A program made the translations under genes and the position numbers. Positions 2,213 through 44,116 of a stretch of 64,000 nucleotides of DNA are shown piece after piece. Below the pieces are notes generated by a model. It was not told the DNA's origin. It searched no databases and saw only the letters and a list, made by a program, of their open reading frames with translations. Each line of letters begins with the position of its first letter. Positions within the stretch are counted from its first letter, which is position 1. This DNA is from an uncultured Elusimicrobia bacterium (GTDB lineage Bacteria; Elusimicrobiota; Elusimicrobia; FEN-1173): NCBI GenBank assembly GCA_964482515.1, contig CAYZXT010000006.1, positions 28,521 to 92,520 of the forward strand. Reading direction: 5' to 3'.

Positions 2213-2228
2213 GGAACGCTCCTTTGGA

Positions 2229-2738: not shown

Positions 2739-2802
2739 AAACAACAATCCCGCCCTGAAGTTTCCTTCAAGACGGGACCATGGAGAGTGAATGTACGGCC
2801 GG

Positions 2803-3167
2803 CTAACCTTTTTCCCAGAGCTTCTTGCCTTTGAAGCCGTCGCCGGGGGCGTCGTCCGACGGCGGGATCCTCCGCTTGAGCTCCGCGTCGTCCGCGGCGG
2901 CCACGAAACGGAACTCGATCTCCTCGGGACGGATCAGGCCGAGGTTCCGCCTGGCTTCCTGCTCGAGGAATTCGTCGTCCCTCTGGGCACGCGCCAGTTC
3001 AAGCTGTTTGTTCGCCAACCGCGCCTGGGCCTCCTGCAGTTTGGCCGCCAGCCGGCTGTATTCCCGCCGGCGCGAAATGTAACCGCGCACGCCGCTGCTG
3101 GAGGCCAGCATCACCAGGACGAAGGCCCCGATGGACAGCCAGAGGACGTTCGTCTGGACGAATTTTT

Positions 3168-3171
<4 letters not shown>
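2803..3171 (-). CDS. ftsB: FtsB/DivIC-like septum formation initiator (coiled-coil, single TM)
   Basis: It lies immediately downstream of eno, the classic eno-ftsB synteny. The coiled coil is [38 protein letters not shown]. The TM helix ([15 protein letters not shown]) is encoded upstream of the first canonical start (GTG 3114), so I extend to CTG 3171. This start is uncertain. Confidence 0.6.
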
Positions 3172-4529
<1,358 letters not shown>

Positions 4530-4560
4530 GGAAATTTCTCCTTAAGGTTATCTTGTTGTC

Positions 4561-4613
4561 ACCCCGGCGGAAGCCGGGGTCCAGATGAACTGGATTCCGG
4601 CTTGCGCCGGAAT
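4561..4613 (-). terminator. two tandem 8-bp GC-rich hairpins between the phosphohexomutase gene and eno
   Basis: The first hairpin is ACCCCGGC-GGAA-GCCGGGGT (4561-4580). The second is ATTCCGGC-TTGC-GCCGGAAT (4594-4613). Both share the core CCGGC-N4-GCCGG. There is no clear U-tract, so an intercistronic stabiliser or attenuator is equally possible. Confidence 0.35.
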
Positions 4614-4627
4614 GACTGCTTAAAAAT

Positions 4628-6082: not shown

Positions 6083-6284
6083 GGGGCGCAAGTCTCCTCG
6101 GAGCCTCGAGGGACTCCGCAACAGGTTTGAGCCGCTATCCTATCACAAGGTCAAAAAGCTGTCAACGGCGGTCTGAGAGGGAAAAACGATGTGAAATCCT
6201 GACCTTAACAGTCATTTTTTGGGCGAATGGAGGACAGAAACTCGGCCGGATGGTAGGATTGATTTTTTGCCGGATGCAAACAGC

Positions 6285-9200
6285 TTAAGCGGAGGTCAAG
6301 AAAAGGCCAAGAGCCTTCAGTCCTTCTTGCAGGCTCTCAACCAGGCGGAAAATCGGCACCAGGACCACAACGTCCTTGTAGACGCCCAATTCGACCTGGT
6401 CCGAAGCGAAAATCACCGCATTTTTGGGATCCAATTGCCCCGCCTTTTCCAAGGCCGACAACAGCCTGTCCATCCTCAAGATCGCTCCGTCCAGAAGCGA
6501 CACTTCCGCGCGGGCCGAAGCAATGAGCGAGGGTCTCTCGCCGGCCAGGATGATCCGGATGTTGCCTTGGCGCAACAGGACGTCGTAGTCGCGCATGAAT
6601 TCCTCCCGGTCCCTGCCCGCATTGAAGGCTGCGTCCGCCGACATGCCTTGCCAGAAATCCGGAGAGGCTTGGCGCGGATCGCGCACGATCAGGGTCAAGG
6701 TGTTCGCCGTATCCCCGGCCGTTCCCGCATTATTGGCGACGAAGGCCGCCAGCAGTCCCGACACGGAGGCGCGCGCCGCGCCCTTCTTCATCACATCCGC
6801 CGGAACTTCAGCGAAGACGTCTTTGCCGCCCCTCATCCGCGCGGAAACTTTCGTGAAGACGACGCGTCCGGCGTATGCGGCCAGAATGTCACTCCGGAAG
6901 GTTTCATGGCCCCGCGGCGACCAAGCATCGCCCGGCGCGTTGTCGCCCAAAGACTCCAAAGCCCGCCCCAGGACATAAGCGGCCCCCCGGTCCCCGCCCC
7001 TTGCCGATTCCCGCGCCAAACCCTTGGTCAAGGCCCCGCGCAGAGCCGCCGGGTCGGGCGTTCCGTCCACAAAAGCGTTGCTGGCCAGTCTGATGTGAAT
7101 CCGCGGCAGGCCCAGGGCGTCCACCCCGAAATTCCGCGCCGGAGCGATGCCGCGCAGCCAGACGCGGGCCCGGTCGCGGAACCCCGACTCCTTCACATGC
7201 CAAGAATCATCGACGGCCACAGGGACCGGAACAACGGAAACCTCCGAAACCGAATCTTGCCGGGCGGATAGGATCGCGCGGAACGCCGCGGACAGAAGAG
7301 CGGAGAAGACCATCGCCAGAACAATCCCGCCGGCCACGCCGCCCGCAAGAGACCCCGCAAGGAAACCCAAAGATACCGGCAGGACCTGCGCCGCGAAATA
7401 GGCCCACCGCTCGCTCACCACGCCCAAGCCGTGCAGCGCCTCGTGCCCGGGCACGCCCAGGATATAAAGGCCGGCGCGGGACAACACCTTGAAAACGGGG
7501 TTTGAATGATAGACGAAATGGGCGAGGGAAGGATTCAGGACTAGCGCGTGTGTGTTCTTTTCAAATTCCAATAAATCGACGCCGGGCTCAACGCGGACCG
7601 AGCGGAACCCGAACAGGGGCGGCGCGCGACCGTCGGGGGTTTCATAGGCCGCTCCCGAACGCGCAGCCGCCGCCAAAACCAATCGGAGAATCCCCATCAG
7701 GACCAGCCCCGCCAGGGGCCAAGCCGCCGCCGCGCCCAGAGAGCTGGCCGCAAAACCGAAGGACGCGGCCAAAAACTGGGCGGACACCAGGAACGCCGCG
7801 GCCGCCACGCCGAACAACGCCGCCGCCCACAGCCCCTGCCGCCAGGTTTCCCGGGACACGGCCCTGCGCTCGATGTCCTCAAACAGCCTGTCATAAGCAT
7901 CCGACTCTCCTTCCGCTTCGAACCAATCGCGAACTTTTTTCAACGCGGCGGAACGATCCACCAGCGTTTCCAAAAGCCTATTCAGCAATTCGCTCCTTGG
8001 TCCATGGGCCGTCGGTTCCGATTGAGCGTCCCTCTCGCGCGATGAATACGCCTTCGCGGCGTCCTCATAACCCATTATGTCCGAAACTTTCCCATCATCG
8101 CCCACGAAGTACACTTGCACATACTCCGGAACCCGACATTTCAAAATAAAGTCCAACATGGCCTTTTTGGGAAACGCAGCATTCACTTTAATCGTGCACG
8201 GGACCGTGATCCCCGTGGTCAACTCGTTTAGGACGCGATGGATTATCAACCATTCCGATAGACCTTCTAAATTTATACTAATTACGGATGAATTATCCTC
8301 GACCCGCGTTTCCTCCTTCGACAACGATCTCATAAGGCCGCGAAGAGTTCCCATCATCTCCTCTGTAGGATTGGTTGGTTCACCAAATTTTCCGGACAAC
8401 GCCCAGGCATGGTCGTATTGCTTGGACCCGCTATCAACTATCAAGTCCTTTGGATTCGGATGGTGGAGGAACAAATTGACGATCATCGCCTCGGGAAATT
8501 GGCCGTCAGAGACAAAGACTTTATGCAGGGCCCGCAACCCAAAAAGAGGAGACAAATCCTTCACCCGGCTGGCCTCCAAGTGAAGTATCCCCAGACTGGG
8601 CAAGGACCCCATGCCTTCGAGGGGTTCCTGTCTTTGTCCCACATTGACCAGCAACCCGAATACATTTTTTTCCACCGTGGCTGAAGGGCCAAACAGGTCC
8701 CTCGCCCGCGTTACTTGGCTTTCGAGAGTGGGGAAGCGATCCTCAGCGGCCGGGGCCGGCGTCGCAATGGGCCCCATATCGGCGAACTCTTCCGGGTGCG
8801 CGCGGCGATAAGCGACAGCCTCGGGATAGGCTATTGTTCTGAACGATTTAAAAAATCCGATCTTGACGGCCTCGGGTCGAGGGGAACTTAAAATGATCCT
8901 CGACAGCACGGCTTCGGAAAATTGCCCTTCTTCGATAACTATTTTTAAATTCCTTACGTTAAGGTATTGAACCATTTTCAGCATGTCGGAACCCTTTATG
9001 CTCGCTCCGACAAAAAAAGTAAATTCCCCGAAGGATGACGGGTGAATGCTGCTCTCATTGGCGGCTGCGGGCCCGACTATTGCTTTCAGGTCATTCGACA
9101 ATTCCGCCGCAATCACAGAATCATTGTATGACGGAAAGATATGATCCATGCGATACGTCTTCTTACCTTTTCCCGATCTGGAAATTTCAGCAATAAAAGC

Positions 9201-12200
9201 CTTCGGCGCAGGACTATAATCCTGATAAAAACTCCTGATATCCTTTTTACGAAATTTCCCCTCTGGAATACTCATGGTTTTCAGCCCTCGTAATCCACTG
9301 AAAACCCTCAAGTCGGAAGGGCCATCCTCCTTAATAATGATCGATTCGATGCTCGGGCACTTCCTCCAAAGGACGTCCCAGGAAACCGCATAGTCCCGGT
9401 CAAGCATTAACTCCAGGGGACCATCATCACGCAAATGAACTTGATTTTCGCCGAAGGTGTCAACGAGAATCCGCCGCTGCTCCTCGATCGTGGGGAAGGG
9501 GTCCGGCGTATCTGCAGGCTGGACAGTCCGCTGCGCGGCGGGCGGCGTTGTCCCGGGCAACGCCATGAGGGAGAACTGCTTTGGGTGCGCGCGGTAATAC
9601 GCGACAGCCTCGGAATAACTCATTGAACGAGACTCCCCCTCATCGGATGAAAAGATAAAATGAACGTTCTCGGGCACGGGGGAAGTTAAAATAAAAAAGG
9701 TCATGAAAAATTCGTCGATTTGAAATCCTTCAGACATCAGAAAGACTTCTCTCATTTCAGAAAAGCCCGTCAGTACCCTCAATTCATCGACGCCCAGCCC
9801 TTGAGAAAGGCGAATGCGTAATTGCCACATATCCTGCATAAACTCCGCTGTCACAGAACTCATCATGTTGTGTCGCCCGAGTTTTTCCCTGATTATCGCC
9901 CTGACTTCCTTGAAGCCGGACCCTGGAATGAAGTCCGCCGCCGAAAACCATTTCATGCCTCCAGACGGATTGTCTGAATAAATACGGATCCTTCCAGAGT
10001 TTTCAGCTTCGCGATAAAACCTTTCAAGTTCCACTCGATGAAACCTCCCGGCTGGAAGCTGGATATTGCGCAGACCCCTTATCCCTTCATAAAAGTTAAT
10101 ACTGAGGGTGCCGTTTTCCCCGACAATTATCGTCCTAATGCTCGGGCAATGCTTCCAAAGGGATTCACACTCCCTATAAGGAAATAAATCTCTATCATCC
10201 ACAGTTAACTCCAAATCCCCGTTCCTATCCACCTTCACTTTTTCGGGCCCGAAGATATCAATGAGCGCTTCACGCTGCTCCTCGATCGCGGGGAAGGGGT
10301 CCGGCGTATCAGCAGGCTGGACAGTCCGCTGCGCGGCGGGCGGCGTTGCCCCGGGCAACGTGACGGTGAACTCCTCCGGGTGCGCGCGGCAATAGGCGAC
10401 AGCCTTGGAATAATCCATAAAACGGGGGGTCTCCCCTTGCATTATAATCTCCTGAATCTCCTCAATCGAGACGCCCTCGGGAAAAGGAGCGCTCAGAACG
10501 ATTCGGGCCATGTCGGCATCCGTAAATTGATCATGATCCACAAATATCAGGATACTCGCTCGACGAGAGTATTCCGTCATTTTCATTAAGTCGGGAACCG
10601 TCGCAACCTTCGTAGGTTTAATCTCATACTTACGAGATACCCCCAGACGAACATAAATATCACGCGTCAAGTGGGGCGGGACGAATTCTCGGCACGCCTC
10701 TTCCATCTCGGATATTAAATTTTCGTTGCTCAATCCAGGGGTGAAGGTGCTCGCCGAATAACTTTGTCTTACTATTTCTTCATCCCACACATGAACGACA
10801 ATTCGCATGGGATCATTTTCATTCCCAAAAAAAAGGCCGACGTCGTCATCAGAAAATTTTCCCGGTGGAATAAAAATGGTTCTCAGCCCTCTTAATCCAT
10901 TGAAAATCCTCAAGTCGGAAGGGCCATCCTCCCTGATAATGATCGATTCGATGCTCGGGCACTTCTTCCAAAGGGCGTCCCAAGAAACCTCGTAGTCCCG
11001 GTCAAGCGTTAGCCCCAGGTTACCGTGGAGAAGCAAACGAACTTGATTTTCGCCGAAGGTCTCAACAAGAATCCGCCGCTGCTCCTCGATCGTGGGGAAG
11101 TGACCGGAGGCATCCAATACATTATCGGGATAAACAGAATCAACCGGCGCCTCCTTCAAAACGGGCGCCCGTTCCCTGTCGCGGCGGGCGACGGCGTAAA
11201 TGTAAGCCGCTTCCACGCGGGACTGCAGTTCCCGCGCGCTCATGATGATGTAAGGCGCTTCTTTCAGATAGGCGGCCGCCTGGGGCTCGTCCAATGTCCC
11301 GGAAACAACAACCACCTCGAACCCCCTGTCCTTGAGGAAATGGACGAACTCGCCGGCGATGAGATTGCCCCCGTTGGCCGGCAGGCCGTGAACGAGCAAC
11401 GGCGGCCGGGTCGAAGCGGTGGGCATGCCACCGCGGCGGAACCCCCGCAAGGGATTGCGCAGGAACTTGGGGAGATAGAGCGTTCCGGTCCCGGGCGGGC
11501 CGAACTCCCGGCCCGGAGTCGCACGCCGCTGCACGAAAGCGGAAGCTTCCGCGTCAAGGAGGGATGAAACCGTCGTGCTTAATTCCTTCATTTTTGAATA
11601 TCGGGACTCCTCACTCAGAACGCTGGGGACAGGACGCGCCGATACGGATTCAGAGATCTGGACATCGTTATTGTCGTCGCGAGCCTTCGATTCATGAGCT
11701 CCCTCAATTCCATCGTATCGGGAGCCGACCGTTTCCGAGGCAACCCGACCAAACAATCCCGCCAGCCGACCCATTTGCGATATCCGGATCCGCCCAAGGA
11801 ACCCCAAAAATCGGGTCAACCGAGAATCTTCGGTTGAGACCCCTTCTGCCCTGGCCGCCGACAACTTGATCCCGCCATAAACCATGGACGCCAATAAACT
11901 GAGTCCGACAATAATAACCAGCGGAAGATAATTCGGCATTCCACGCAACAGCTCGGGTTCAGGAATTCTGGGAATCATTGCCGGAAGCGCCGAAGATCCC
12001 GAATTCGCGTGAACAACAAGAAGAGCCAGGATTCCCGAAGCCAAAAGGACCCCCGCGGCCAATGCCAGCCGCCTCATCCGAAATCGCGACCCGGCCGGCG
12101 CTTTATTCGATTTCAATTTAGCTTGCGCGATGGCCAATATCTTCGCTTTCCTCGCCGTCAAATCCTTGTCTCCGAGAAATCCCAGGGCCGTCAGAATCGA

Positions 12201-15200
12201 CCGGGGCGCCTTATTGTCGGTGAGCTGCGCGATTATTTCCCGAAGGCGCTCTTCGGAGGCCAGGGGCAAGTCATCTTCCATCAAACCGAGCTCATCGCTC
12301 AAACTCTTTAATATTTCGTTGCGCTGATCCTGCAAATCCTCAACGACGTCCTCCAGCGGCTCCTCTGGAACCGCCCGTTCCTCCATCTCGCGCGGCGGGC
12401 CGGACAGGTCCACCTCCCCGATACGACCAAGGACTTTCCCAACGTCAACACTCCCCGGCCGTGGCAAAACCGATTTTTCCTTGGGAGAACGAACCGGGAC
12501 GGCACCAAGGCTTAGGAACTCACCGTCCAATTTGATCCTCTGCATGGCTTTCAGGGCAAGGTATTGCCGGTAAAGAATTTCATCCTCCTCCAGGGTCTCC
12601 GGGATACCGTTTTGAAAAATCTCATCCACAACGTCCAAATGCCGCAGGGCCAAGGCAAACGGGTTGAGGTTTACTTCCCCATACCGCTCCAACCAAGCCG
12701 ACGCGGCCGCTTCCAATTGCGTTCGCGATATTTCCTTCCTTCCGTAGGCGATCAGGGCCAGTTGGAATATTTTCTTCGGCGCCAGGGAAAACAGCCCCTT
12801 CCAGTCACCGGCAATCCCCCTCTCCAAGTCGCGCTGAAAATAGACCGACTCATGGTCATTGTCTTGCGTTATGCTTCCGGGGAAATGTTGCCGCATTGCC
12901 CTTTTGTGACGCAGATCCTCCAAATCTTGATACACATCCTCAAAGGGGTCCGCCGGGGCCTGCAACCCCGCGAGCGAAAGAAAAAAATCCGGCGCCGAAG
13001 TGGGGGTAAGCCCCGCGAAATCCCGAGTGAATAACCCATGTCCGGCTTCATGCTCCAGGGTGTTCAACCAATCTTGGCCATCGAACTGGTCCTCCCTAAA
13101 AGCGATGTCCACCTTCTGCGCTTTGTAGGTCCCAGCTGCGGACTGCCCCGCGGGCTTGAGGCTGATTGTCACCGGCCGTTGGTGGACAGGAAGGATGAAT
13201 TGGGCGATGCGGCCGATGGCCTTCACTTTGTCCAGGCCGCTTCTGAACTCCAGGGAAGCAAGCGCCTTCCGGCCGGGCAATTCTTGCCCCCTCAGCATCC
13301 TCCGCAGATAGATGGGGCCGTACACCCTCTCCACGGCCTCTTCCGCCGAAACGCCCGACGCCGCCACGAGCAGGGCCCGCTTGAATTCCCGCGGCGTGGG
13401 CCGCTCCCGAGACCGCGGCAGGGCGTTCTGTATCCAAAGGTGCGCGCGGACGATGTAAGCCATGTCCTCGTCCGACAGGGCCGGGGCCTTCGTCCCGAAT
13501 TCCGTGACGATGTCCAAAGCGTATTCCGATAAGTCATCCTTGTCGTAATCCATCTCGCGGCGGAAGATCACCCGGTTCTGCAAGGCCGTGGAAAGCCTTT
13601 CGCGGCCGCTGAAGTCGGCCCCGTTGATCGTGGCGATGAACGCAAAACCCTTCGCGTCGGTGTTATCGTCGGTCAGCACGTCGTTCAGCTTCCCTTCCAA
13701 ATAGCCGCTGGGCAATACATCCAACTCGCTGACCACTAGAACGACCCCGTTCTCCTTGGCCCAAACTATGGCCTTCTCAAGCTCGTCGAACCGCGGCGAG
13801 GCGTTGATGTGGCAAAAGCTGCGCGGGCCCGGCGCGGCCGCCCCCGCCTTGACCGCCTCATAACCGCTCGACTCCAGAACCCGCACCACGGTCACGTCCT
13901 TGCCGCGGCCGGAGGCTCCCTCCAAAATCATTCCCCGCTTTCCCGCCGCAAGCCCGTTCCGTTTCATACGATATTCCCGCATGATGAGGAAATCTCCCAC
14001 CGCCGCGGCCAACCTCATCGTGGTGCGCGATAGGGTAAGGGCCCTCGACCTATACAATTGGGCCCCCTCGTTGCGCAGATCCTCTATCCAGGCGTTTTGG
14101 AGAGCCTCCGCGTCCACCGCGAATTTCAGGCGGAGCGCGTGCCGGAGCGCGACGCGGCCCTCCGGACTCAAGCTCGGCGAGAACATTTCCCACGCCGCAA
14201 GGAGCGCTTCTTCCACGATATTGCCGGATCCGCTCAGCACCTGCGCCCGGGCGGACAGTTCCTGGAGGTCGCGCAAAGAAATTCCCTGTCCCTCCTCCCA
14301 CCCCGCCACCCGGCGAACGGTCTCAAATACCCCGAGCAGCAGGGCCCGCAAGGCCGCCGCGTTCGGCGCATCCGGCGACACGTATTCTTCGAGCCTTTGC
14401 CGGAAAAACGCCTCGTCGAATTCAGGGAAGGCGACGGTGGGGACGTGCGGGGCGAGGAAATCCTGATACTTTCTGTCCTGCAGGGTTTCCTGGTTCCCGG
14501 TGAAAACGACCTTCTTGCCCTCCATATCGATCTTGCGCCCTTCGATCCACATGTAGGGGGTTTCCCCTTCTCCCACGAACAGCCCCCCGAAGAACCGCCA
14601 AAAATCCGGCCGCGCCAGGTTCGCTTCGTCCAGGACCAGCAGCGCCGGCCCATCGTGCAAAGCCCAGCGCGTGATGTCGGCGAACGCGGAGGCCCTGCCG
14701 GTCTCATCGTCGTTCGAGTCCTGTTCCTGGGCGTCCACCCCGATCGTCACGGGCCCGAACATCCGCAGCCCCAGCGCGTCCGCCAAACCTTTTGCCGCAA
14801 AGCTTTTTCCCGTCCCGGGAGACCCTTTCAGGAACACCGCCGGGGATTTTGCCAATATTCTCCGCACCCGCCCCAAACGTTTATCCCAACTTTCCTCGAC
14901 CGGGCCGGCCTTGTCGTTGATGGAAGGAGCTTGATCAACGGACGCGTTCGCCTTTCGGAAAAGGGCGCGGTAGAAACCCTCCCGGTCATCGCCCAGGTGC
15001 GCCGCGATCAGCGCGTCCTGAATCAGCTCGAGCGCCCTCCCGGCGCCCGCGCGATCAAAACTTTCGGGCACGCCGGCTTCGTCCAACAAATCCAGGCTGA
15101 GGGTATCCGCGAATTCCCAAAAACGGTCCTTCCATGTGGCGGGAGCGACGATCTTGTTCATCGCCGCTTTCAGTTTCGGCCCATGAATGCTCCTCCCAGT

Positions 15201-18200
15201 CAGCCCCGCCTCCTTCGGCCGAAATGTCCGCCGCGCCGCCGTCCGCAGAAACGCGGCCACGTTCGGATCGTCCGCGTAATCGTCAAGATAAACGTCCTCA
15301 AAGGCCCGCATCCAATCCAGCGTGCCATCGGGGTTTCGAGCCTGGCGGCACAGGAGCCGGAGGCGTCCCAGGCTGAAATCCGCCCGAGCCGGATAGAGCC
15401 CGCGCCGCGCCGGCGGAGGGACCGTCTCGAAAGCCCTTCTCAAGGAGAGCACCTTCTCAATATCGCTTTCCGTGAGAGCTCCACTGAATTCGCGCTTCAA
15501 TTCCTCCACTATGTCCCGCACGGAAATGTCCAACACGGCGCGGTGAAGAACCGAGACGCCGGCGCCGCTCCCGATATGAGAAAGAAGGATCAAGCGTCCC
15601 GTTAAAACGTTTTCCCCTTTGCCGGCGAAGGGACGGACCTCGCCGTTCACCACGAGATAGGGATTTTCATGCAAAGCCGTTTCCAACTGGCGCAGGAGAT
15701 CCGGATTGGATTCCATCCCCGCCAAAACGACGGTTTCTCCCCGTTCCAAGGCCTCCAACACCTGCCTCTTGACCGCCCGCAAACGCCCCCCCGGCAACAG
15801 CTCGCTCGCCATCGATAGATCGTCCAGGATGGTCGCCGGCGTGACCGGATAAACAAGGGGGGGCTGGCCGTTCCGTTCGGAGACGTCCCGCATGATCCGC
15901 GCCAACAGGCCGGACGGGTCCGATCCTTCAACGAGCGACACCCGCCGGTCCCGCGCCATTTCCCACGACTCCGGATCCGGGGCCCTGGTCCGGCGGACCG
16001 CCGGCAGCATTCCACGATAACGCAACGGGACCTCCACGCCGACGCCCAATTCAATTTCCAATTCGCCGCCCATATGCAAAAGACGGTGCCACAGCGACTC
16101 CGGAATTTCCGGATCGGTTATAAGGACCCGGAGACGCCCTCCGTCCGCGCCCATCCGCTCCAGCAATCCCGCGCCCTGGGACAACGTCCCCTGGGAATCG
16201 ATGCGGGTGAACTCAAACAGCTGGTGCTGCGTTTCCCGGTTCAAGACCCACGCGCGCTCCGCCGGCCAGGCGGTCTCGCCCGCCGGCACGACCCGTTTAT
16301 TCTCCAAGGCGCGCCGCCCGTAGCCGCCCTCCGCCCAATGGACGGAAAAACCTTCCCGCGCCGCCACCCATTTTCCGTTGGAAAGGATCCCGCCGTTCAA
16401 GAGGGCCTGCCGGACCATGTGGGACAACCGGGTGTTGGGGATTCCCTGCTCATCTCGCCACACGCCCCCTTGGATCAAGAGGGGCCGCCCTTCCCTCATG
16501 GCCCGGACGAGTGCGCCCTCTTCCCAGCGCACGCTTCCGTTGGGCAGAAGCCGGTAGCGCGCGACCAGCGCATCCTTAATATCGATGTCGTCGGACTCGA
16601 AAAGTTCCGCGCGCAGGCCGTTGAAAGCCTCCGGATCGTCGACCTGGGACAAACCTTCCAGCGGATCCGCGTAATCCGCGTCCGCTTGGAATTCCCCGGT
16701 CAGGGAGCGTGAATAAAAATCAACCGAAAATTCACGCAGCTGGTCCTCCCGCACCGCCCCAACGATGCGGAGCGACGGAGAGGCCTTAACGCCCAAATAC
16801 TCCGGAGAGTCCCCGAACAGCTGATTGAATCCCGCCACGGTCTTTGGGTCGGAATTCGTGTAGTCCAGGAACAACACGCCGCCCCGCTCGATCAATTGAA
16901 GCAAGGGGCTTTTCGCCTCCCCAAACCGGCCGTTTATCACGCGCGCGGGATTGAGCAAATCATCCAAATCGGTGTCATCCCGCAGGGTCAGCCGCAAATA
17001 CGGAATGTTTCCGTTCGCGGCCACGATTTCCCTTAGCCGCACATCCAATGCCTCCACATCCCGGGGCGTATTCACGAAGGTCAACCCGCGACCTTCGTTC
17101 AATAGATCGGTCAGGCTCGGATCGGCCCACGGCGAACCCATCGTCATCGGGAAACGGCGGAATATTTTGTTCCACCCCGTGTGGACGGCAACGGCCAGAA
17201 CAAAGCCGATCACCATGGCCAGGAGGGAGTAAAGCGGTCCATCGAACCCGGACAGGAACAACCGGGGCGCGGCGAGGGCGGCGAGGTTGAATAAGACAAC
17301 GGCGAAAAGGCGGACGGCGAAATCAACGGGGGATTTATTTTCATGGCGGAAAACGAAAGACGCCTGGTGCGCGGCGTAATAAACCGCCGCCACCAGCCAG
17401 AACGACATGACTATCGCCAAAAGCAGCGGATTCGCCTCCAGCAACACAGCCTTCAAATTCCATGCCGCCATCAGGATGAGGCCAGGCGCGCGGCCCATCC
17501 AAAAGGCGCGCCAGCGCGTCAACGTCGGCTGCCCCCGCGCTTCGATTTCCTTCCGCGCCGAAGCGGCGGGAGCCAGGCCCGCTTCTTCAATCACGGAATA
17601 GCCAAGCAGCTTGTGACTGATCATAGGATTCCTCAGCCACTCCGGCGCATGCTTGACCGCATTTTCGTAATAGGCCTTCGTGCTCGACAGGATCAGCGAG
17701 CGGCTTCCCCACAGGTTTTTCCACCAAGGAACGCTCAACCTCCGCGGCGGACTGAACCTCACCGACTGAAAGGAATCAGCGCCTCCCACGGGGAATTCGG
17801 CGACCACCGACGGCGCGCCCGGTCGCGCAATCAACAAGCCGTTCTCTCCGAACCCGATACTCCACCCCCACCACGCCTTGGCTTTCTCAATCAGCGCGCG
17901 AAGATTTTTACGCCTTTCACCTGAGGGAAGTTTGTTTTCCCTCCACCGCGCCTGGCTGCCCTCAACAGTGGCGGCCAAGGCGTTCGCCTTCACGGCGAAA
18001 TCATGGGCCTGGATCCTTCGCTGGAAGGGTTCGGCCAACCGCCGAATCAGCCCCGGCGAGGTAAACCGTGCGAAGATCAGGGAGATGGGTTCTCCGGCGA
18101 AAATTTTCTCGATGGGGAGTGGATCGCGGGAGAAGATGTCCATGTAATTTTTGGCCTGATCGATGTTTTCCACCTTTGGCGTGACGACGACGTAAGACGC

Positions 18201-19853
18201 ATTCTTCCGCCGCCAAAGCGCCGTCATACCCTCGGTGTGGAACCCGCCGGTCACCAGGACGGCGGAGGTTTGCTTTTCTTCTTTCATTTTCCTGAGCAGG
18301 TTTTCGGTGAGGGCTTCATTGCGGGCCAAAGCCAGACGGCAGAAATCTTCGAACGGTTTCAGCAATTCCGCGCGTATGGCGGGAAAAGCCGGAGAGCCCG
18401 ACGACAGAGAGCGGGCCCGGTCCGCCATGTTGAGGATCAACGGGCGTCGTTCCGTATAATCGGCCCAATGCCGCGGCGTCATTTCCGTGCGGAGCAATTT
18501 CGTCAGCAGGGCCTGGTCGCGTCCCAACCCCGCCAGTTCCTTTTGCGCCGGCTCAAAAGTGAGCCCGGCTTCGACTGTTTTTTCCATCCGTTCCAACTCG
18601 TCCAACAACTTGTCCCGGTTTATGCGCTCCGCGGACTGGACGTAGGTCATATAATCGGACAACTGCGGATAGCCGGTCAGGTCGATGTTCTTTTCCCGGC
18701 AAAGATCGCGCATATACGCGTAATATTCCCCGTAGCTCCTTTGACCGGCGCGGTACTCGACGCTCGCCCGCACCAGTTCATCCAGGGACTCCCGGCTCAG
18801 TCGCGATACCAGGCGATCGATCAAATCAAGCCGCTCGCGTTCCACCTTTTTGAAATCCAGTTTTTTCTCCCACCGGATCGCCCGGGACAACAGGGCCACG
18901 TTGGGATAGGCCCCGGCATCCGCGCGGGAGGAAAGAAAATCCACGTAAGCGCCCAGCCCTGTTTTACCCGCCTGGAAAGTTTGATAGAAGCGGTCGAACT
19001 CCTTGAGCCCGGGCGAATAAATTTTTTCTTTCAGACCGCTCACGGCCTCGGCCAGACCCGAGAGGAACTCCTCCGCTTCCCTCCGGCGGTCCTGGGCCGA
19101 GAGCACCGCGCGGGTGTTGTCGGCGTAAAGGTCGCCCGTCTCCACGCCCCAGAGGAGCGGCGCGACCTCCGACACCAACCCCAAATATTCCGCACCGCCC
19201 ACGTATCCTTCCTCCAGGAAATAGTCCGCGAGCTGTTGGTTCATTTCTTTCCCGGCCTCGGGCAGGGCCTTGTATTTTTCCATCTCGAAGTAGCCCTCGG
19301 CGCCCTCCAACCCCACGAGCTTCACCCCGCGCCCATCCTTCAGTCCCTGCAGGATGCGGGCGATGTTCTTTTGCGCGTCGTAGGCGCCATGGATGTCTTG
19401 AATGTGGATGATGAGGGGCGAATCCGATTTAGCCAAATGGATTTCCCGGACGCTTCCATAGGGCAAGACCAATCGGGAAAGCCAAGCGGGAACAATCCCG
19501 TTCTTGGCCCACTTCACGTTTTCAGAGAGGTCATGGGCGGACAAGGGAGCCAGAGATGGGGCGAGGGTGGATCCGTTCAGGGTTTCGGGAAGTCCCAGCG
19601 GGATTTGGCCGGTGGGAAGCTGGGCGAGGAGTTGATAGTCCCGGGATGAAAGACTGTTCGCGCGGCCCGGGTTATTTTGCGCCGAAGAGCGGGATACGGA
19701 TCTTCGTTCCTCCCAAAAGTTCGCCTCGGCCAAGGGCGATGCGACCGTTGAATAAAATAACAAGGCGCAGAGGGCGGCGGCGAGGCTCTTTTTGCTCGGT
19801 CCTTGCGCGCTGAAAGGCCTGAAAATCGAGCGGGTTCGGCGGATTATATCCAT
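6285..19853 (-). CDS. giant (4,522 aa) polytopic membrane protein: conserved N-domain, multi-AAA+ block, two HExxH motifs, 4 tandem modules, C-terminal domain
   Basis: ATG 19853 to TAA 6285-6287, uninterrupted. Composition is protein-like throughout, while overlapping ORFs are R/P/G/A-rich shadows. Motifs read directly: GSPGTGKS (14802-14825) with LLVLDEANLA (~14611-14645); GASGRGKD (13896-13919) with VVLVVSELD (~13715-13750); IATINGADFSGRERLSTALQNRVIF (~13560-13640); HEAGH (13038-13052); HEALH (7431-7445). Hydrophobic clusters lie near 17150-17480, 11860-12075 and 7270-7850. Confidence 0.9.
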   Translation of the reverse strand: MDIIRRTRSIFRPFSAQGPSKKSLAAALCALLFYSTVASPLAEANFWEERRSVSRSSAQNNPGRANSLSSRDYQLLAQLPTGQIPLGLPETLNGSTLAPSLAPLSAHDLSENVKWAKNGIVPAWLSRLVLPYGSVREIHLAKSDSPLIIHIQDIHGAYDAQKNIARILQGLKDGRGVKLVGLEGAEGYFEMEKYKALPEAGKEMNQQLADYFLEEGYVGGAEYLGLVSEVAPLLWGVETGDLYADNTRAVLSAQDRRREAEEFLSGLAEAVSGLKEKIYSPGLKEFDRFYQTFQAGKTGLGAYVDFLSSRADAGAYPNVALLSRAIRWEKKLDFKKVERERLDLIDRLVSRLSRESLDELVRASVEYRAGQRSYGEYYAYMRDLCREKNIDLTGYPQLSDYMTYVQSAERINRDKLLDELERMEKTVEAGLTFEPAQKELAGLGRDQALLTKLLRTEMTPRHWADYTERRPLILNMADRARSLSSGSPAFPAIRAELLKPFEDFCRLALARNEALTENLLRKMKEEKQTSAVLVTGGFHTEGMTALWRRKNASYVVVTPKVENIDQAKNYMDIFSRDPLPIEKIFAGEPISLIFARFTSPGLIRRLAEPFQRRIQAHDFAVKANALAATVEGSQARWRENKLPSGERRKNLRALIEKAKAWWGWSIGFGENGLLIARPGAPSVVAEFPVGGADSFQSVRFSPPRRLSVPWWKNLWGSRSLILSSTKAYYENAVKHAPEWLRNPMISHKLLGYSVIEEAGLAPAASARKEIEARGQPTLTRWRAFWMGRAPGLILMAAWNLKAVLLEANPLLLAIVMSFWLVAAVYYAAHQASFVFRHENKSPVDFAVRLFAVVLFNLAALAAPRLFLSGFDGPLYSLLAMVIGFVLAVAVHTGWNKIFRRFPMTMGSPWADPSLTDLLNEGRGLTFVNTPRDVEALDVRLREIVAANGNIPYLRLTLRDDTDLDDLLNPARVINGRFGEAKSPLLQLIERGGVLFLDYTNSDPKTVAGFNQLFGDSPEYLGVKASPSLRIVGAVREDQLREFSVDFYSRSLTGEFQADADYADPLEGLSQVDDPEAFNGLRAELFESDDIDIKDALVARYRLLPNGSVRWEEGALVRAMREGRPLLIQGGVWRDEQGIPNTRLSHMVRQALLNGGILSNGKWVAAREGFSVHWAEGGYGRRALENKRVVPAGETAWPAERAWVLNRETQHQLFEFTRIDSQGTLSQGAGLLERMGADGGRLRVLITDPEIPESLWHRLLHMGGELEIELGVGVEVPLRYRGMLPAVRRTRAPDPESWEMARDRRVSLVEGSDPSGLLARIMRDVSERNGQPPLVYPVTPATILDDLSMASELLPGGRLRAVKRQVLEALERGETVVLAGMESNPDLLRQLETALHENPYLVVNGEVRPFAGKGENVLTGRLILLSHIGSGAGVSVLHRAVLDISVRDIVEELKREFSGALTESDIEKVLSLRRAFETVPPPARRGLYPARADFSLGRLRLLCRQARNPDGTLDWMRAFEDVYLDDYADDPNVAAFLRTAARRTFRPKEAGLTGRSIHGPKLKAAMNKIVAPATWKDRFWEFADTLSLDLLDEAGVPESFDRAGAGRALELIQDALIAAHLGDDREGFYRALFRKANASVDQAPSINDKAGPVEESWDKRLGRVRRILAKSPAVFLKGSPGTGKSFAAKGLADALGLRMFGPVTIGVDAQEQDSNDDETGRASAFADITRWALHDGPALLVLDEANLARPDFWRFFGGLFVGEGETPYMWIEGRKIDMEGKKVVFTGNQETLQDRKYQDFLAPHVPTVAFPEFDEAFFRQRLEEYVSPDAPNAAALRALLLGVFETVRRVAGWEEGQGISLRDLQELSARAQVLSGSGNIVEEALLAAWEMFSPSLSPEGRVALRHALRLKFAVDAEALQNAWIEDLRNEGAQLYRSRALTLSRTTMRLAAAVGDFLIMREYRMKRNGLAAGKRGMILEGASGRGKDVTVVRVLESSGYEAVKAGAAAPGPRSFCHINASPRFDELEKAIVWAKENGVVLVVSELDVLPSGYLEGKLNDVLTDDNTDAKGFAFIATINGADFSGRERLSTALQNRVIFRREMDYDKDDLSEYALDIVTEFGTKAPALSDEDMAYIVRAHLWIQNALPRSRERPTPREFKRALLVAASGVSAEEAVERVYGPIYLRRMLRGQELPGRKALASLEFRSGLDKVKAIGRIAQFILPVHQRPVTISLKPAGQSAAGTYKAQKVDIAFREDQFDGQDWLNTLEHEAGHGLFTRDFAGLTPTSAPDFFLSLAGLQAPADPFEDVYQDLEDLRHKRAMRQHFPGSITQDNDHESVYFQRDLERGIAGDWKGLFSLAPKKIFQLALIAYGRKEISRTQLEAAASAWLERYGEVNLNPFALALRHLDVVDEIFQNGIPETLEEDEILYRQYLALKAMQRIKLDGEFLSLGAVPVRSPKEKSVLPRPGSVDVGKVLGRIGEVDLSGPPREMEERAVPEEPLEDVVEDLQDQRNEILKSLSDELGLMEDDLPLASEERLREIIAQLTDNKAPRSILTALGFLGDKDLTARKAKILAIAQAKLKSNKAPAGSRFRMRRLALAAGVLLASGILALLVVHANSGSSALPAMIPRIPEPELLRGMPNYLPLVIIVGLSLLASMVYGGIKLSAARAEGVSTEDSRLTRFLGFLGRIRISQMGRLAGLFGRVASETVGSRYDGIEGAHESKARDDNNDVQISESVSARPVPSVLSEESRYSKMKELSTTVSSLLDAEASAFVQRRATPGREFGPPGTGTLYLPKFLRNPLRGFRRGGMPTASTRPPLLVHGLPANGGNLIAGEFVHFLKDRGFEVVVVSGTLDEPQAAAYLKEAPYIIMSARELQSRVEAAYIYAVARRDRERAPVLKEAPVDSVYPDNVLDASGHFPTIEEQRRILVETFGENQVRLLLHGNLGLTLDRDYEVSWDALWKKCPSIESIIIREDGPSDLRIFNGLRGLRTIFIPPGKFSDDDVGLFFGNENDPMRIVVHVWDEEIVRQSYSASTFTPGLSNENLISEMEEACREFVPPHLTRDIYVRLGVSRKYEIKPTKVATVPDLMKMTEYSRRASILIFVDHDQFTDADMARIVLSAPFPEGVSIEEIQEIIMQGETPRFMDYSKAVAYCRAHPEEFTVTLPGATPPAAQRTVQPADTPDPFPAIEEQREALIDIFGPEKVKVDRNGDLELTVDDRDLFPYRECESLWKHCPSIRTIIVGENGTLSINFYEGIRGLRNIQLPAGRFHRVELERFYREAENSGRIRIYSDNPSGGMKWFSAADFIPGSGFKEVRAIIREKLGRHNMMSSVTAEFMQDMWQLRIRLSQGLGVDELRVLTGFSEMREVFLMSEGFQIDEFFMTFFILTSPVPENVHFIFSSDEGESRSMSYSEAVAYYRAHPKQFSLMALPGTTPPAAQRTVQPADTPDPFPTIEEQRRILVDTFGENQVHLRDDGPLELMLDRDYAVSWDVLWRKCPSIESIIIKEDGPSDLRVFSGLRGLKTMSIPEGKFRKKDIRSFYQDYSPAPKAFIAEISRSGKGKKTYRMDHIFPSYNDSVIAAELSNDLKAIVGPAAANESSIHPSSFGEFTFFVGASIKGSDMLKMVQYLNVRNLKIVIEEGQFSEAVLSRIILSSPRPEAVKIGFFKSFRTIAYPEAVAYRRAHPEEFADMGPIATPAPAAEDRFPTLESQVTRARDLFGPSATVEKNVFGLLVNVGQRQEPLEGMGSLPSLGILHLEASRVKDLSPLFGLRALHKVFVSDGQFPEAMIVNLFLHHPNPKDLIVDSGSKQYDHAWALSGKFGEPTNPTEEMMGTLRGLMRSLSKEETRVEDNSSVISINLEGLSEWLIIHRVLNELTTGITVPCTIKVNAAFPKKAMLDFILKCRVPEYVQVYFVGDDGKVSDIMGYEDAAKAYSSRERDAQSEPTAHGPRSELLNRLLETLVDRSAALKKVRDWFEAEGESDAYDRLFEDIERRAVSRETWRQGLWAAALFGVAAAAFLVSAQFLAASFGFAASSLGAAAAWPLAGLVLMGILRLVLAAAARSGAAYETPDGRAPPLFGFRSVRVEPGVDLLEFEKNTHALVLNPSLAHFVYHSNPVFKVLSRAGLYILGVPGHEALHGLGVVSERWAYFAAQVLPVSLGFLAGSLAGGVAGGIVLAMVFSALLSAAFRAILSARQDSVSEVSVVPVPVAVDDSWHVKESGFRDRARVWLRGIAPARNFGVDALGLPRIHIRLASNAFVDGTPDPAALRGALTKGLARESARGGDRGAAYVLGRALESLGDNAPGDAWSPRGHETFRSDILAAYAGRVVFTKVSARMRGGKDVFAEVPADVMKKGAARASVSGLLAAFVANNAGTAGDTANTLTLIVRDPRQASPDFWQGMSADAAFNAGRDREEFMRDYDVLLRQGNIRIILAGERPSLIASARAEVSLLDGAILRMDRLLSALEKAGQLDPKNAVIFASDQVELGVYKDVVVLVPIFRLVESLQEGLKALGLFLTSA
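8040..11100 (-). repeat. four in-frame tandem protein modules (~805, 798, 762 and ~700 nt) inside giant ORF 1
   Basis: Module starts are marked by (P/H/R)FPT(I/L)E(E/S)Q at nt ~11100, 10295, 9497 and 8735. Each has two LRR-like halves and ends in (Y/M)xEAVAYxRAHPEEF-type linkers. Hand-counted DNA identity between copies: 85/88 (9475-9562 vs 10273-10360), 58/60 (9439-9498 vs 11041-11100), 115/125 (9281-9405 vs 10883-11007). Confidence 0.85.
13560..17150 (-). other. multi-AAA+ (AAA_5/MoxR/midasin-like) block, two units with intact Walker A/B and upstream degenerate units
   Basis: There are two P-loop/Walker-B pairs (see the CDS entry), each followed by an ATxN...GR..L..AL.NR-type segment. Upstream units lack the P-loop Lys but keep Walker-B-like strands (GGVLFLDYTNSDPKTVAGFNQLF; GETVVLAGMESNPDLLRQLETAL). 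Confidence 0.6.
18085..19722 (-). other. conserved N-terminal domain of giant ORF 1 (paralogous to 44230-45870)
   Basis: Alignable by eye block by block with giant ORF 2: FWEERR/FWQDRR; IHIQDIHGAYDAQKNI/VLVQDAHEIYSAQLNI; LVGLEGAEG/LIGLEGAAG; LWGVETGDLY/MLGVETPTLY; LDFKKVERERLDLIDRLVSRL/LDFKAVESERLQLVKILSHRL; VLVTGGFHTEG...VVVTPKV/VIVVGGFHAPA...VTVTPKV; PLPIEKIFAGE/VPLEKMFLGE. Confidence 0.85.
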
Positions 19854-19935
19854 GCCAACAAGTATATAGGGGGTGGATAAAATCCGCCTTATTCATTAGT
19901 AACATATGTGTAAATTTTATAATGACGTTACCGTC
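19854..19935 (-). promoter_or_regulatory. upstream region of giant ORF 1 carrying motifs shared with the giant ORF 2 upstream region
   Basis: Minus-strand reading: ...AATTTACAcatATgTTACtAAT...ATCCaCccCCTATATActtgttggcATG. There is no Shine-Dalgarno sequence before the ATG. Confidence 0.45.
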
Positions 19936-19994
19936 GGAGACAGTCCCGACCGCCCTCTGGGACCGGATGAAAATGTCTCTATTTTATAGCTCGT

Positions 19995-21299
19995 TTATTG
20001 TTTGGTTCGCGGGGAAAGATATTCGGCCAAATGAAGGGTCTTAATTTTGGATTTAGCGCGGCGCAGGCCGAACCGGACCTGGAGCAGGCAGGAGATGCTG
20101 GAGGTGAGAACGTAGTCCGCCCCAGTCGAAAGGATGTTCTTGGTCTTGCGGTCCAGCACCGCGCGGGAAATCTCCGGGTGGACGAAACTGTAGGTCCCCC
20201 CGCCGCCGCAGCATTGCTCCGCTTCGGGCAACTCCCGGTAATCGATGTTCGCGGACCGGGCGAGGATCTGCCGCGGCGGATCGACGATCTTCTGGGCGTA
20301 GCGCGCCTTGCAGGGGTCGTGGTAGGTGACTTTGTTGTTTTGTTCAAGCGCCGGCGACCGAAGGCCTTTTTCCAAAAACCATTCGCTGAGGTCGCGCGTG
20401 CGCCGTGAAACGGTTTCCGCCCGGCGCAGCCAGTCGGGTTCGCCGTCGAACAACTGCGGATATTCTTTGATTGTCGAGGAGCAGGAGGAATCATCCACCA
20501 GGATGATCGCTTTCGGATATTTCTCCAACTCGACGATGTTCTTGCGGGCCATGGCCCGCGCCGCGTCGAGGTCGCCGTAGCTGACGCCCGGCATGCCGCA
20601 GCAAACGTTGTCGGCGCAGCCGGACTTGAAACCCGCCGAGCGTATGATCCGCGCGGTGGCCTCGCCCACCTGCGGCATGATGAAGTTCGATCCGCAGGCG
20701 ACGAACTGAATGATTTCCGCGTCCGGCGGAGGCGTTGCGTCGCCAAGCCTGTCGCGTAAGAACGTCGAAGGGACTTCCTCCGCCAGTTCTTCCGCGTCCG
20801 CGAGTTTGGGGCTGATCATCCGCAGCAAACCGGCGCGGTTCATCCAGCGGCTGACGCCCAGGCGCTTGCCGATAAACAGAATTTTCAGGAACGGCTCGAA
20901 CACCTTCGGCCGCGGCAGCAGGACGCGCAGGACGAACTTCAGGAACAGCGGCTGGCCGTGCTTCTCCGTGATCTTTTCCCGGGCCGCCACCATCAGCTTC
21001 GCCGTGGGAACCTCGGAAAAACACACCGACGTGCAGATGCCGCAGAGCAAACAGGTGGAGAAAAGCTTTTCCGCCTCGGCCGGGTCCGCGAGGCGGCCTT
21101 CCAGCACCGCGCGAAACGCCTGGTTCCGCCCGCGCGGCGACAGACCCTCGTCGCCCGTGGCCAGATAGGTCGGGCAGAACGACGTGCAGAAGCCGCAGCG
21201 GTTGCAGTGCATCGCGTCCGCGTAGTAGGCCTTGTCGGCCGGGCGGTTCAAAGCCGCCGGGCGGGAGATGAGGTCGATCTTTGACGGTTCGTCGGGCAT
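19995..21299 (-). CDS. glcF: glycolate oxidase-type Fe-S subunit (GlcF-like, 2x 4Fe-4S + 2x CCG domains)
   Basis: CNRCGFCTSFCPTY and CLLCGICTSVC ferredoxin motifs; CCGMPG and QCCGGGGTY cysteine-rich CCG motifs. Confidence 0.8.
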   Translation of the reverse strand: MPDEPSKIDLISRPAALNRPADKAYYADAMHCNRCGFCTSFCPTYLATGDEGLSPRGRNQAFRAVLEGRLADPAEAEKLFSTCLLCGICTSVCFSEVPTAKLMVAAREKITEKHGQPLFLKFVLRVLLPRPKVFEPFLKILFIGKRLGVSRWMNRAGLLRMISPKLADAEELAEEVPSTFLRDRLGDATPPPDAEIIQFVACGSNFIMPQVGEATARIIRSAGFKSGCADNVCCGMPGVSYGDLDAARAMARKNIVELEKYPKAIILVDDSSCSSTIKEYPQLFDGEPDWLRRAETVSRRTRDLSEWFLEKGLRSPALEQNNKVTYHDPCKARYAQKIVDPPRQILARSANIDYRELPEAEQCCGGGGTYSFVHPEISRAVLDRKTKNILSTGADYVLTSSISCLLQVRFGLRRAKSKIKTLHLAEYLSPRTKQ

Positions 21300-31641: not shown

Positions 31642-32013
31642 CTAGAACCTCGCTAGGATGAATTCGTGGAATTCTCCCATCCCATTCACAGCTTTCATTG
31701 CCTCCCGTTTATCGGCCTCTTCCCCCGGATAGCGGAATCGAACCGAATACTGATTAAGGAAATTTAAAACATCTTTTATCAATGCGAATGAACCATCAAC
31801 CTTTTCAGCTAAAACCTGCAAATCCATCAGATCATGCGTCTTTGGAAAACGCACGTTCTTCGAGGTGAGATAAGCTTTCAGATATTTTTCCGCGGATTGC
31901 TGGCAATGGAAGCAAACGACATCGTGAAGTTGTTTTTTGTTCTTGAGATATTGAACTGCCCGGTAATCCTGGTCGGCTTTCTCCAACCATTCCTTAACGA
32001 TCTTACCGTTCAT
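31642..32013 (-). CDS. HEPN domain protein (toxin of HEPN/MNT pair)
   Basis: WLEKADQDYRAVQYL...FHCQQSAEKYLKAYL...THDL, with an R-x4-H-like end. It overlaps the upstream nucleotidyltransferase gene by 11 nt and is low-GC. Confidence 0.75.
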   Translation of the reverse strand: MNGKIVKEWLEKADQDYRAVQYLKNKKQLHDVVCFHCQQSAEKYLKAYLTSKNVRFPKTHDLMDLQVLAEKVDGSFALIKDVLNFLNQYSVRFRYPGEEADKREAMKAVNGMGEFHEFILARF

Positions 32014-32335
32014 AAAGGATATGGCCCTTCTCCATTATATCCTGAAGGAAGTAATCACCGTGTTTGATTCGCTCTTCAACCTCATCGGAATGACGGACGA
32101 TGATGTCCACGGGGAAAGGCCGGGGATCAAGCGCCTTAGAAGCCGCCAAGTAAGTCTGCTGGCGTTTCTCTTTGCTCTTCTCATCACAAATCAGCAGAAA
32201 ATCCACGTCGCTATCGGGCGTGGGCTTCCCATAGGCGTAGGAACCGAATAGCACGATCCGCTTAGGATGTACCGCCTCGGCCATCTTCTTGGCGGCCTGC
32301 TTTATTTTCTGACGAGTGATTGAATTATGTTTCAT
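32003..32335 (-). CDS. minimal nucleotidyltransferase (MNT antitoxin of HEPN/MNT pair)
   Basis: RIVLFGSYAYGKPTPDSDVDFLLI is the GS-x10-DxD Pol-beta-type NTase motif. Confidence 0.8.
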   Translation of the reverse strand: MKHNSITRQKIKQAAKKMAEAVHPKRIVLFGSYAYGKPTPDSDVDFLLICDEKSKEKRQQTYLAASKALDPRPFPVDIIVRHSDEVEERIKHGDYFLQDIMEKGHILYER

Positions 32336-43907: not shown

Positions 43908-43990
43908 ATTAACATTTTCGACACCTTATCGCTAGGGCTCGACGCCAGTCGTGACCCCGGCATGCAATCTTATCGATGACGAAGCGGATT

Positions 43991-44083
43991 AATTTACATT
44001 ATTGTTACAATCACTTAACGCCCCGTTAAGACGGTCCCGCTACAATGACGGCTCATCCGCAACCTATATAACCTTCTCAACCA
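43991..44083 (+). promoter_or_regulatory. upstream region of giant ORF 2 with motifs shared with giant ORF 1 plus a 7-bp-arm palindrome
   Basis: AATTTACAttATtgTTACAAT (43991-44011); palindrome CTTAACG-ccc-CGTTAAG (44014-44030); ATCCgCaaCCTATATA (44055-44070). Confidence 0.45.
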
Positions 44084-44116
44084 TTGCACATCCAACTCAG
44101 CAAGGGGAATGAACCA

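Follow-up and report, generated by a model that had tools for sequence, protein, structure and literature searches.

The two giant genes and their genomic setting

The window, i.e., the whole 64-kb stretch of DNA analysed here, carries two giant genes:

6285..19853, minus strand: ORF1, 4522 aa from an ATG start, with a signal peptide and a conserved N-terminal family domain of ~600 aa
44117..49825, plus strand: ORF2, 1902 aa from ATG 44117, its N-terminal ~600 aa 35% identical to ORF1

Their products have in common the signal peptide, an AEA(N/S)FW motif and the ~600-aa N-terminal domain, are unrelated in sequence beyond this domain and, as judged from their sequences, are paralogs. No other gene of the window codes for the domain. 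The remaining genes are those of an ordinary chromosome (among them enolase, phosphoglucomutase, ComEC, glycolate-oxidase-like subunits, squalene/phytoene synthases, IlvD, FolD and MDH), and a search for a regulator gene across the 64 kb found none. The ORF2 contig is also present in run SRR14787578. An Rfam search of the window and of representative loci identified no RNA family. The “tRNA-His” with anticodon atg called by ARAGORN at 40065-40137 (+), opposite the ORF at 39846-40250 (-), has no Rfam tRNA match at the gathering score and is probably a false positive.

The sole domain found by Pfam in ORF1 is an AAA_5 segment, and a search of solved structures with a profile of the N-terminal domain gave no match. 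A word-indexed protein search with the ORF1 amino terminus recovered one homolog only, and the exhaustive HMMER search with the domain recovered 7936 cluster representatives at E<=0.001. Many proteins of 2000-7600 aa are found among the 150 best of these 7936 matches that were listed, and the named proteins of the family are Elusimicrobia MAG proteins. Several members (P0153, P0157, P0166, P0169, P0171, P0173 and P0174) join the N-terminal domain to domains of housekeeping enzymes. The partners fused to the family amino terminus are aminotransferase, Glu/Leu dehydrogenase, inositol monophosphatase, NUDIX, glycogen synthase, phosphoglucomutase, SecA and response-regulator receiver domains. On their predicted domain composition, the giant proteins are enzyme mosaics with a common head.

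Residues ~2900-3530 of ORF1 (roughly 9260-11150, minus strand) contain internal repeats of ~265 aa, detected in BLAST alignments, with the motif AQRTVQPADTPDPFP(A/T)IEEQR...LWKKCPSIESIII(K/R)EDGPSDLR seen at least three times. In locus L001 (250-700), the 2650-aa gene (543-8495) that adjoins the ORF1 homolog begins, by eye, midway through the family N-terminal domain (..AVLVAGGFH..) and is immediately preceded by a transposase-like ORF of the opposite strand, as if an insertion sequence had truncated a family gene.

A shared module upstream of ORF1 and ORF2

The same 60-nt module, a predicted promoter, precedes both giant genes, each gene having its own copy. Its general form is (G/T)TTACA-5-(G/T)TTACA-5-TTAAGG-5-TTAAGr-9-TAnnnT. 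The elements assigned to the two copies are the following.

ORF1, minus strand:
19937..19979: hairpin between the glcF-like gene and the module (-23.6 kcal/mol, z -2.17), possible terminator without a U-run
19909..19914: site 1, TTTACA, predicted at ~-61..-56 from the A of the ATG, read from the sequence and the module alignment
19898..19903: site 2, GTTACT, 11 bp after site 1
19887..19892: site 3, ATAAGG (consensus TTAAGG), 11 bp after site 2
19876..19881: site 4, TTTATC (consensus TTAAGr), degenerate, the 5' part of the proximal block described below
19861..19866: predicted -10 box TATACT, from the module geometry, 9 nt after site 4 and 7 nt before the ATG
19851..19853: start codon ATG without a Shine-Dalgarno sequence (SD); predicted transcription start at its A or 1 nt before (C at -1)

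ORF2, plus strand:
43993..43998: site 1, TTTACA, from the module alignment
44004..44009: site 2, GTTACA, from the module alignment
44015..44020: site 3, TTAACG, from the module alignment
44026..44031: site 4, TTAAGA, from the module alignment
44041..44046: predicted -10 box TACAAT, from the module geometry, 9 nt after site 4; predicted transcription start at ~44053-44055
44055..44070: proximal block, at the 5' end of the predicted 5'UTR, a chance resemblance or a vestige
44102..44108: Shine-Dalgarno sequence AAGGGGA, 8 nt before the ATG

The nhmmer model of the module matches the window at 43990-44047 (+) with E 9e-10 and at 19917-19860 (-) with E 1.4e-7, and gives no further match in it at E<=10. 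Sites 3 and 4 of ORF1 are degenerate (ATAAGG and TTTATC); site 4 has the same degenerate form, ATTATC, in locus L066. Neutral DNA would keep no similarity between genes whose N-terminal domains are 35% identical, yet the two promoters match the model at these E-values.

The preliminary description of this DNA had proposed that a distal and a proximal block lie in the same order upstream of both genes. The sequences that it quoted were all found in place: for ORF1 (-), AATTTACAcatatGTTACtaat at 19916-19895 and ATCCACCCCCTATATA at 19878-19863, then 9 nt and the ATG at 19853; for ORF2, AATTTACAttattGTTACAAT at 43991-44011 and ATCCGCAACCTATATA at 44055-44070, then 13 nt and the TTG at 44084. The distal-to-proximal spacings of 46 and 72 nt, with their difference of 26 nt, are also correct. 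The degenerate patterns of the two blocks each match only two sites in the 64-kb window, a result that is partly circular as the patterns were derived from these sites. The distal block, AATTTACA..GTTAC, is the core of the module, i.e., sites 1 and 2, and its sharing by the two genes goes far beyond chance according to the E-values above, but the proximal block is a weak match (p ~0.02).

The proximal block and the start of ORF2

The proximal block, ATCC.C..CCTATATA, pairs a segment of the ORF2 leader with the region upstream of ORF1, and a 13/16 match turns up in 1.9% of shuffled sequences and in 1.6% of the 70-nt segments taken from the window itself. In ORF1 it is made of site 4, the following spacer and the -10 box. 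The module geometry, which places the ORF2 -10 box at TACAAT, assigns to ORF2 a different equivalent of this stretch, TTAAGAcggtcccgcTACAAT, so that the alignment of the proximal blocks between the genes is not supported. The two spacings differ by 26 nt because ATCCGCAACCTATATA sits 26 nt downstream of the module-equivalent stretch, within the predicted ORF2 5'UTR. On this comparison, the proximal block is regarded as chance or vestige.

The reading that follows from the preliminary description takes this block as a functional shared element, TATATA as the -10 box of both genes and ORF2 as a near-leaderless gene starting at TTG 44084. In its favour, the 13/16 match runs collinear with the distal block and would be somewhat unlikely by chance (p ~0.02), and TTG 44084 is in frame with ORF2. 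This reading is nevertheless very unlikely: the block occupies non-equivalent module positions (41 in ORF1, 67 in ORF2), does not recur in any other family promoter across 1.01 Mb of related loci, and ends in ORF2 with TATATA/TATAAC, both lacking the conserved final T of TAnnnT, whereas TACAAT is correctly placed 9 nt after site 4. Orthologs of ORF2 closer than 42% identity, sought as a test of the block, were not found. The start codon argues in the same direction. The program-made ORF list gives ORF2 as 44084-49825 (+) with a TTG start, but ATG 44117 has a good SD and is also the start in an independent gene prediction, made on a different assembly of this sequence, that gives a protein of 1902 aa; the codons 44084-44116 would add 11 residues (LHIQLSKGNEP) before the methionine that opens the predicted signal peptide. 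TTG 44084 is thus not the likely start, and ORF2 is better described as a leadered gene with the SD AAGGGGA and a predicted leader of ~63 nt. Folding of this 5'UTR revealed no structure beyond that of shuffled sequences (z +0.87).

A reading of the proximal block as the DnaA box TTATNCACA, to which ORF1 TTATCCACC corresponds at 8/9 and ORF2 TCATCCGCA at 7/9 positions, was rejected, the block being present in no other family promoter.

Conservation and distribution of the module

A protein-first scan of species-representative genomes, based on an 8-sequence alignment, provided 80 loci. A regular expression and then the nhmmer model detected the same arrangement before many of them, always on the gene strand; the region upstream of the close homolog in L001, from an Elusimicrobia MAG, reads AATTTACAgtttgTTTACAagtttTTAAGGcaaccTTAAGAaggtgaatgTATACTttttgcATG. 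The repeat pair of sites 1 and 2 lies on the gene strand <=420 nt upstream of the family gene in 36 of the 46 Elusimicrobia loci with usable upstream sequence, and in none of the 26 loci from Omnitrophota, Planctomycetia or unclassified bacteria. Counted as KTTACN-N5-KTTACN over 459 kb of related loci, the pair has 38 occurrences on the gene strand <=420 nt upstream of a family gene, in 36 loci, and 15 occurrences elsewhere; the chance expectation is ~3.2 for both strands of all 523 kb scanned. Several of the ten Elusimicrobia loci scored as misses have a pair with one mismatch, or a pair ~900-1050 nt upstream before an intervening gene. In L066, L067, L077 and L081 the repeat pair is likewise found ~900-1050 nt upstream, before an intervening ORF.

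The consensus of 50 non-identical modules is a.a.(T/G)TTACAa.aaa(T/G)TTACAA.tT.TTAAGG..a.cTTAAG(g/a)-N9-TAnaaT. Half of these modules come from a pattern-based search in which the core bases were fixed, and the consensus is unchanged when the protein-first subset is used alone. The four upstream hexamers keep an exact 11-bp phase in the 50 modules. Bases T6, T7, A8, C9, T17, T18, A19, C20, A29, A30 and T39 show no or almost no variation, while the spacers are free in sequence. TAnnnT is found at module positions 53-58 in 33/50 modules, as opposed to 0-1 at offsets 44-52, and the gap between site 4 and this box is always 9 nt. Conservation confined to the hexamer cores constitutes a phylogenetic footprint. 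Among the position pairs of sites 3 and 4, only 33/44 agree beyond shuffles (p 0.0004), in a test that shared ancestry confounds; the agreement of the other pairs is not above shuffles.

Two further readings of these elements were discarded. A palindrome TTAAGG..CCTTAA finds no conservation in its flanking CC (position 36 is C in 10/50 modules), and inspection by eye of TGGCAT/TTGCA near the start codons, as a possible sigma-54 promoter, showed no consistent GG-N10-GC.

The footprint bears on the possibility that the two upstream regions resemble each other without function, as a remnant of a duplication or a gene conversion involving the 5' ends of paralogs. The paralogs do share their 5' coding region, but its identity is just 35%, conservation is limited to hexamers at fixed spacing while the spacers vary, and the pattern extends across many genomes. 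Paralogs with ~28% N-terminal identity in low-GC genomes retain GTTACA-N5-GTTACA. A remnant is scarcely tenable, as the footprint pattern effectively refutes it.

In several genomes, 3-6 paralogs have the full module. The suggestion of the preliminary description that shared cis elements co-regulate ORF1 and ORF2 is supported; co-regulation is probable, and would extend to the whole paralogous family in many Elusimicrobia genomes. A motif-first scan of metagenomes gave 73 matches, ~28 of them of the Elusimicrobia type. A family gene is demonstrably downstream in 20 of these ~28, the rest being mostly on contigs too short to tell or ahead of other genes. The few modules found before genes outside the family precede a MiaB-like gene (L093) and a PilZ gene (L114). 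In L114 the module is followed by an ORF of 122 aa with a PilZ domain (Pfam E 3.6e-8) and then, ~490 nt downstream, by a family gene. Note that pilZ genes are also reported to be conserved near giant genes (West-Roberts et al. 2023, bioRxiv 10.1101/2023.11.21.568195).

The giant genes of Omnitrophota and related phyla described in that study resemble the present family in having AAA_5 and other enzyme domains, with pilZ nearby. They differ in that the Omnitrophota and Planctomycetia homologs of the N-terminal domain are without the module; the word “promoter” has 0 occurrences in West-Roberts et al. (2023).

About 45 of the 73 metagenome matches to TTACA-N6-TTACA-N5-TTAAG-N6-TTAAG form a second class that looks unrelated, aATTACAnnnnnATTACAAATnTTTAAGnnnnnnTTAAGg, and derive from GC-rich (~62%) bacteria, many of them of human-gut origin (L082-L154; e.g., L097 2800-2836 on the minus strand, L142 6069-6105, L144 and L131). 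The array is inverted here and lies ~22 nt upstream of a TATAAT box, before an HlyD-adaptor/ABC-transporter operon adjoining glyA, and several variants have a reverse-strand GGAAC-N16/17-CGTCTA (ECF-like) motif nearby. It may be bound by a related DNA-binding protein or be a coincidence of low-complexity patterns.

Predicted leaderless and leadered members of the family

The distance from the -10 box to the start codon was measured after the reading frames of the family had been set with the domain HMM. The first in-frame start codon is found 6-7 nt after the box in 16/44 family promoters and 9-17 nt after it in a further 8 of the 44. In the 17 promoters with a start codon at 6-7 nt, ORF1 included, the preceding base is a pyrimidine in 12/17, which is the usual context of a transcription start. 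These start codons open normal signal peptides and leave no room for an SD. In contrast, most members with leaders of 24-170 nt have an SD.

The absence of an SD from ORF1, as given in the preliminary description, is borne out: the 18 nt upstream of ATG 19853, ccctatatacttgttggc, hold no SD-like run. The next start in frame, a TTG, is codon 31 and falls within the signal peptide's hydrophobic core. The lack of an SD is by itself not unusual, because only ~46% of genes in the class Elusimicrobia carry one (PMC10783764). A TANNNT box ~12 nt upstream of the start codon is an accepted signature of leaderless genes (PMC3160421). By the criterion of Zheng et al. (2011), ORF1 has both the box (TATACT at 19866-19861, its first T 13 nt before A 19853) and an AUG start without SD, and ORF2 lacks the box, its -10 box being 70 nt before the ATG. 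The earlier proposal that a -10-like box next to the ATG sets the ORF1 transcription start at or beside the codon is supported by the recurrence of this geometry in the family, the functional -10 box being better read as TATACT than as TATATA. These features support ORF1 as a predicted leaderless gene, or one with a 1-nt leader because the start codon follows the -10 box by 7 nt.

ORF1 lies 141 nt after the glcF-like gene of the same strand, and a terminator scan found no canonical terminator between them, where only the U-less hairpin is present; read-through transcripts with SD-independent internal initiation at ORF1 are for these reasons possible.

A perfect TATAAT is present at 19843-19848 (-), 2 nt past the start codon and inside codons 2-4 of ORF1 (ATG GAT ATA ATC). 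Transcription from it would start within the ORF with no usable start codon, and it is probably a coincidence of codons. Elsewhere in the window, at 31642-32335 (-), a toxin-antitoxin-like gene pair codes for a HEPN protein (31642-32013) and an MNT nucleotidyltransferase (32003-32335). Its third-codon-position GC is below that of its neighbours, and the MNT gene, with TAAACT 6 nt before the ATG and no SD, is another leaderless candidate.

In the combination of TAnnnT 6-7 nt before ATG/GTG and a missing SD, ORF1 and ~1/3 of the family are like the leaderless genes of Actinobacteria and Deinococcus-Thermus. Unlike there, the arrangement is tied to one promoter module and one gene family, leaderless paralogs alternate with leadered, SD-bearing versions of the same promoter, and the products are giant secreted proteins.

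Nature of the module

A scan for sigma-70 -35/-10 pairs at 19700-20100 and 43850-44200 found 0 promoter-like pairs. The -10 box is present alone, without a -35 hexamer 16-18 bp upstream as in a canonical sigma-70 promoter. The hexamers themselves could in principle supply both elements, with (G/T)TTACA as -35 and TAAGrn, 17 nt downstream, as -10, giving two overlapping sigma-70-like promoters 11 bp apart; the ORF1 leader would then be 14-25 nt long without an SD, and TAnnnT would lie inside the transcript. TTTACA is identical to TTGACA at 5/6 positions, and sites 3 and 4 follow sites 1 and 2 at a constant 16-17 nt. The sixth base of such -10 boxes (positions 33 and 44) is however T in just 10/50 and 19/50 modules, and start codons pile up 6-7 nt after TAnnnT and not after TAAGrn. 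This promoter reading is disfavoured because the sixth base is unconserved and the start codons track TAnnnT, a box sharply positioned 9 nt downstream of the array in 33/50 modules; the negative sigma-70 scan also speaks against it, and we hold it to be decidedly unlikely.

The absence of a -35 hexamer at normal spacing can also be accounted for without a separate factor, if the array or part of it were read by a dedicated alternative sigma factor or, as an UP-like element, by the alpha subunits of RNA polymerase. Sites 1 and 2 would occupy ~-60 to -44, the usual place of UP elements, in A/T-rich surroundings, and the spacing to the -10 box is rigid. Yet four base-specific hexamers over 39 bp exceed the contacts of a sigma factor, the invariant TTAC and TTAA cores suggest reading in the major groove, whereas UP elements are A-tract, minor-groove signals, and the -10 box is of the housekeeping TAnnnT type. 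This account is rather unlikely. MerR-type promoters, which have a 19-20-bp spacer with the operator between -35 and -10, offer another comparison: with TTAAGG of site 3 as -35 the spacer would measure 20 bp and hold site 4. Their operators are palindromic, whereas sites 3 and 4 are direct repeats and the bases needed for an inverted repeat are unconserved.

A close likeness is to the Pho-box. In its geometry the promoter-proximal repeats end 9 bp before the -10 box and the -35 hexamer is missing; the proximal pair of the module likewise ends 9 bp before the -10 box with no -35. The module also resembles the operators of PhoB at pstS and the multi-repeat sites of ArcA in having direct repeats at 11 bp, four of them in exact phase across the 50 modules. 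OmpR/PhoB-family regulators bind 2-5 direct repeats spaced 11 bp centre-to-centre (PMC4173790). Several traits set the module apart. Its hexamers KTTACA and TTAAGr are not the known boxes of ArcA (TGTTA) or PhoB (CTGTCAT), GTTAC being only loosely like TGTTA; two repeat types occur in one array; ArcA sites are spaced much less rigidly; and the host phylum is uncultured. Since the two hexamer types differ within the array, one protein may not bind all four sites.

The best explanation, which we consider probable from the sequence patterns gathered here, is that ORF1 and ORF2 are each served by a separate copy of a family-specific, factor-dependent promoter module without a -35 element. RNA polymerase would read the -10 box, while initiation would be controlled by a dedicated factor that binds the phased direct repeats head-to-tail and replaces the -35 contact as in Pho-box/OmpR-type promoters; the sign could be activation or repression. 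With transcription starting 7 nt after the -10 box, the hexamers would lie on one helix face at ~-60, -49, -38 and -27, and the proximal pair would fill the place of the -35. All family paralogs of one genome would form one regulon. The ORF1 mRNA would be leaderless or have a 1-nt leader and be translated without an SD, and in ORF2 the same module would drive a transcript with a ~63-nt leader and a normal SD. The sequence comparison shows the module itself, the rigidity of its spacing, its confinement to this gene family and the distance from -10 box to start codon; where transcription starts, whether a factor exists and of which type, and the co-regulation are inferred.

Significance for the giant-gene family

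The function of giant genes in uncultured phyla is opaque, and no literature on promoters of Elusimicrobia or of giant genes was found. Regulon-specific direct-repeat promoters and leaderless transcripts are well known. The novelty lies in this particular module, in the rigid bipartite array that it contains and in its link to a giant-gene family across a single phylum. It is a conventional regulatory signal that brings no new principle of regulation.

A more far-reaching and rather improbable idea is that the module is the operator of a dedicated, lineage-specific Elusimicrobia regulator, or sigma/regulator pair, which co-evolved with the giant “enzyme-mosaic” secreted proteins, the paralog set being a switchable repertoire of which some or one would be expressed at a time. 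If so, leaderless and leadered versions would confer different translational behaviour, and the similarly spaced array before the HlyD/ABC operons of gut bacteria would point to a wider, undescribed family of tandem-repeat-binding regulators.

The module lets the regulon be listed in any Elusimicrobia genome and can serve as bait for the regulator, by DNA pull-down or by phylogenetic profiling for a co-occurring factor. It improves the annotation of start codons, predicting a leaderless ATG for ORF1 and ATG 44117, not TTG 44084, for ORF2. The family also provides a natural comparison, since transcripts from one type of promoter would be translated in some paralogs as leaderless mRNAs and in others with an SD.
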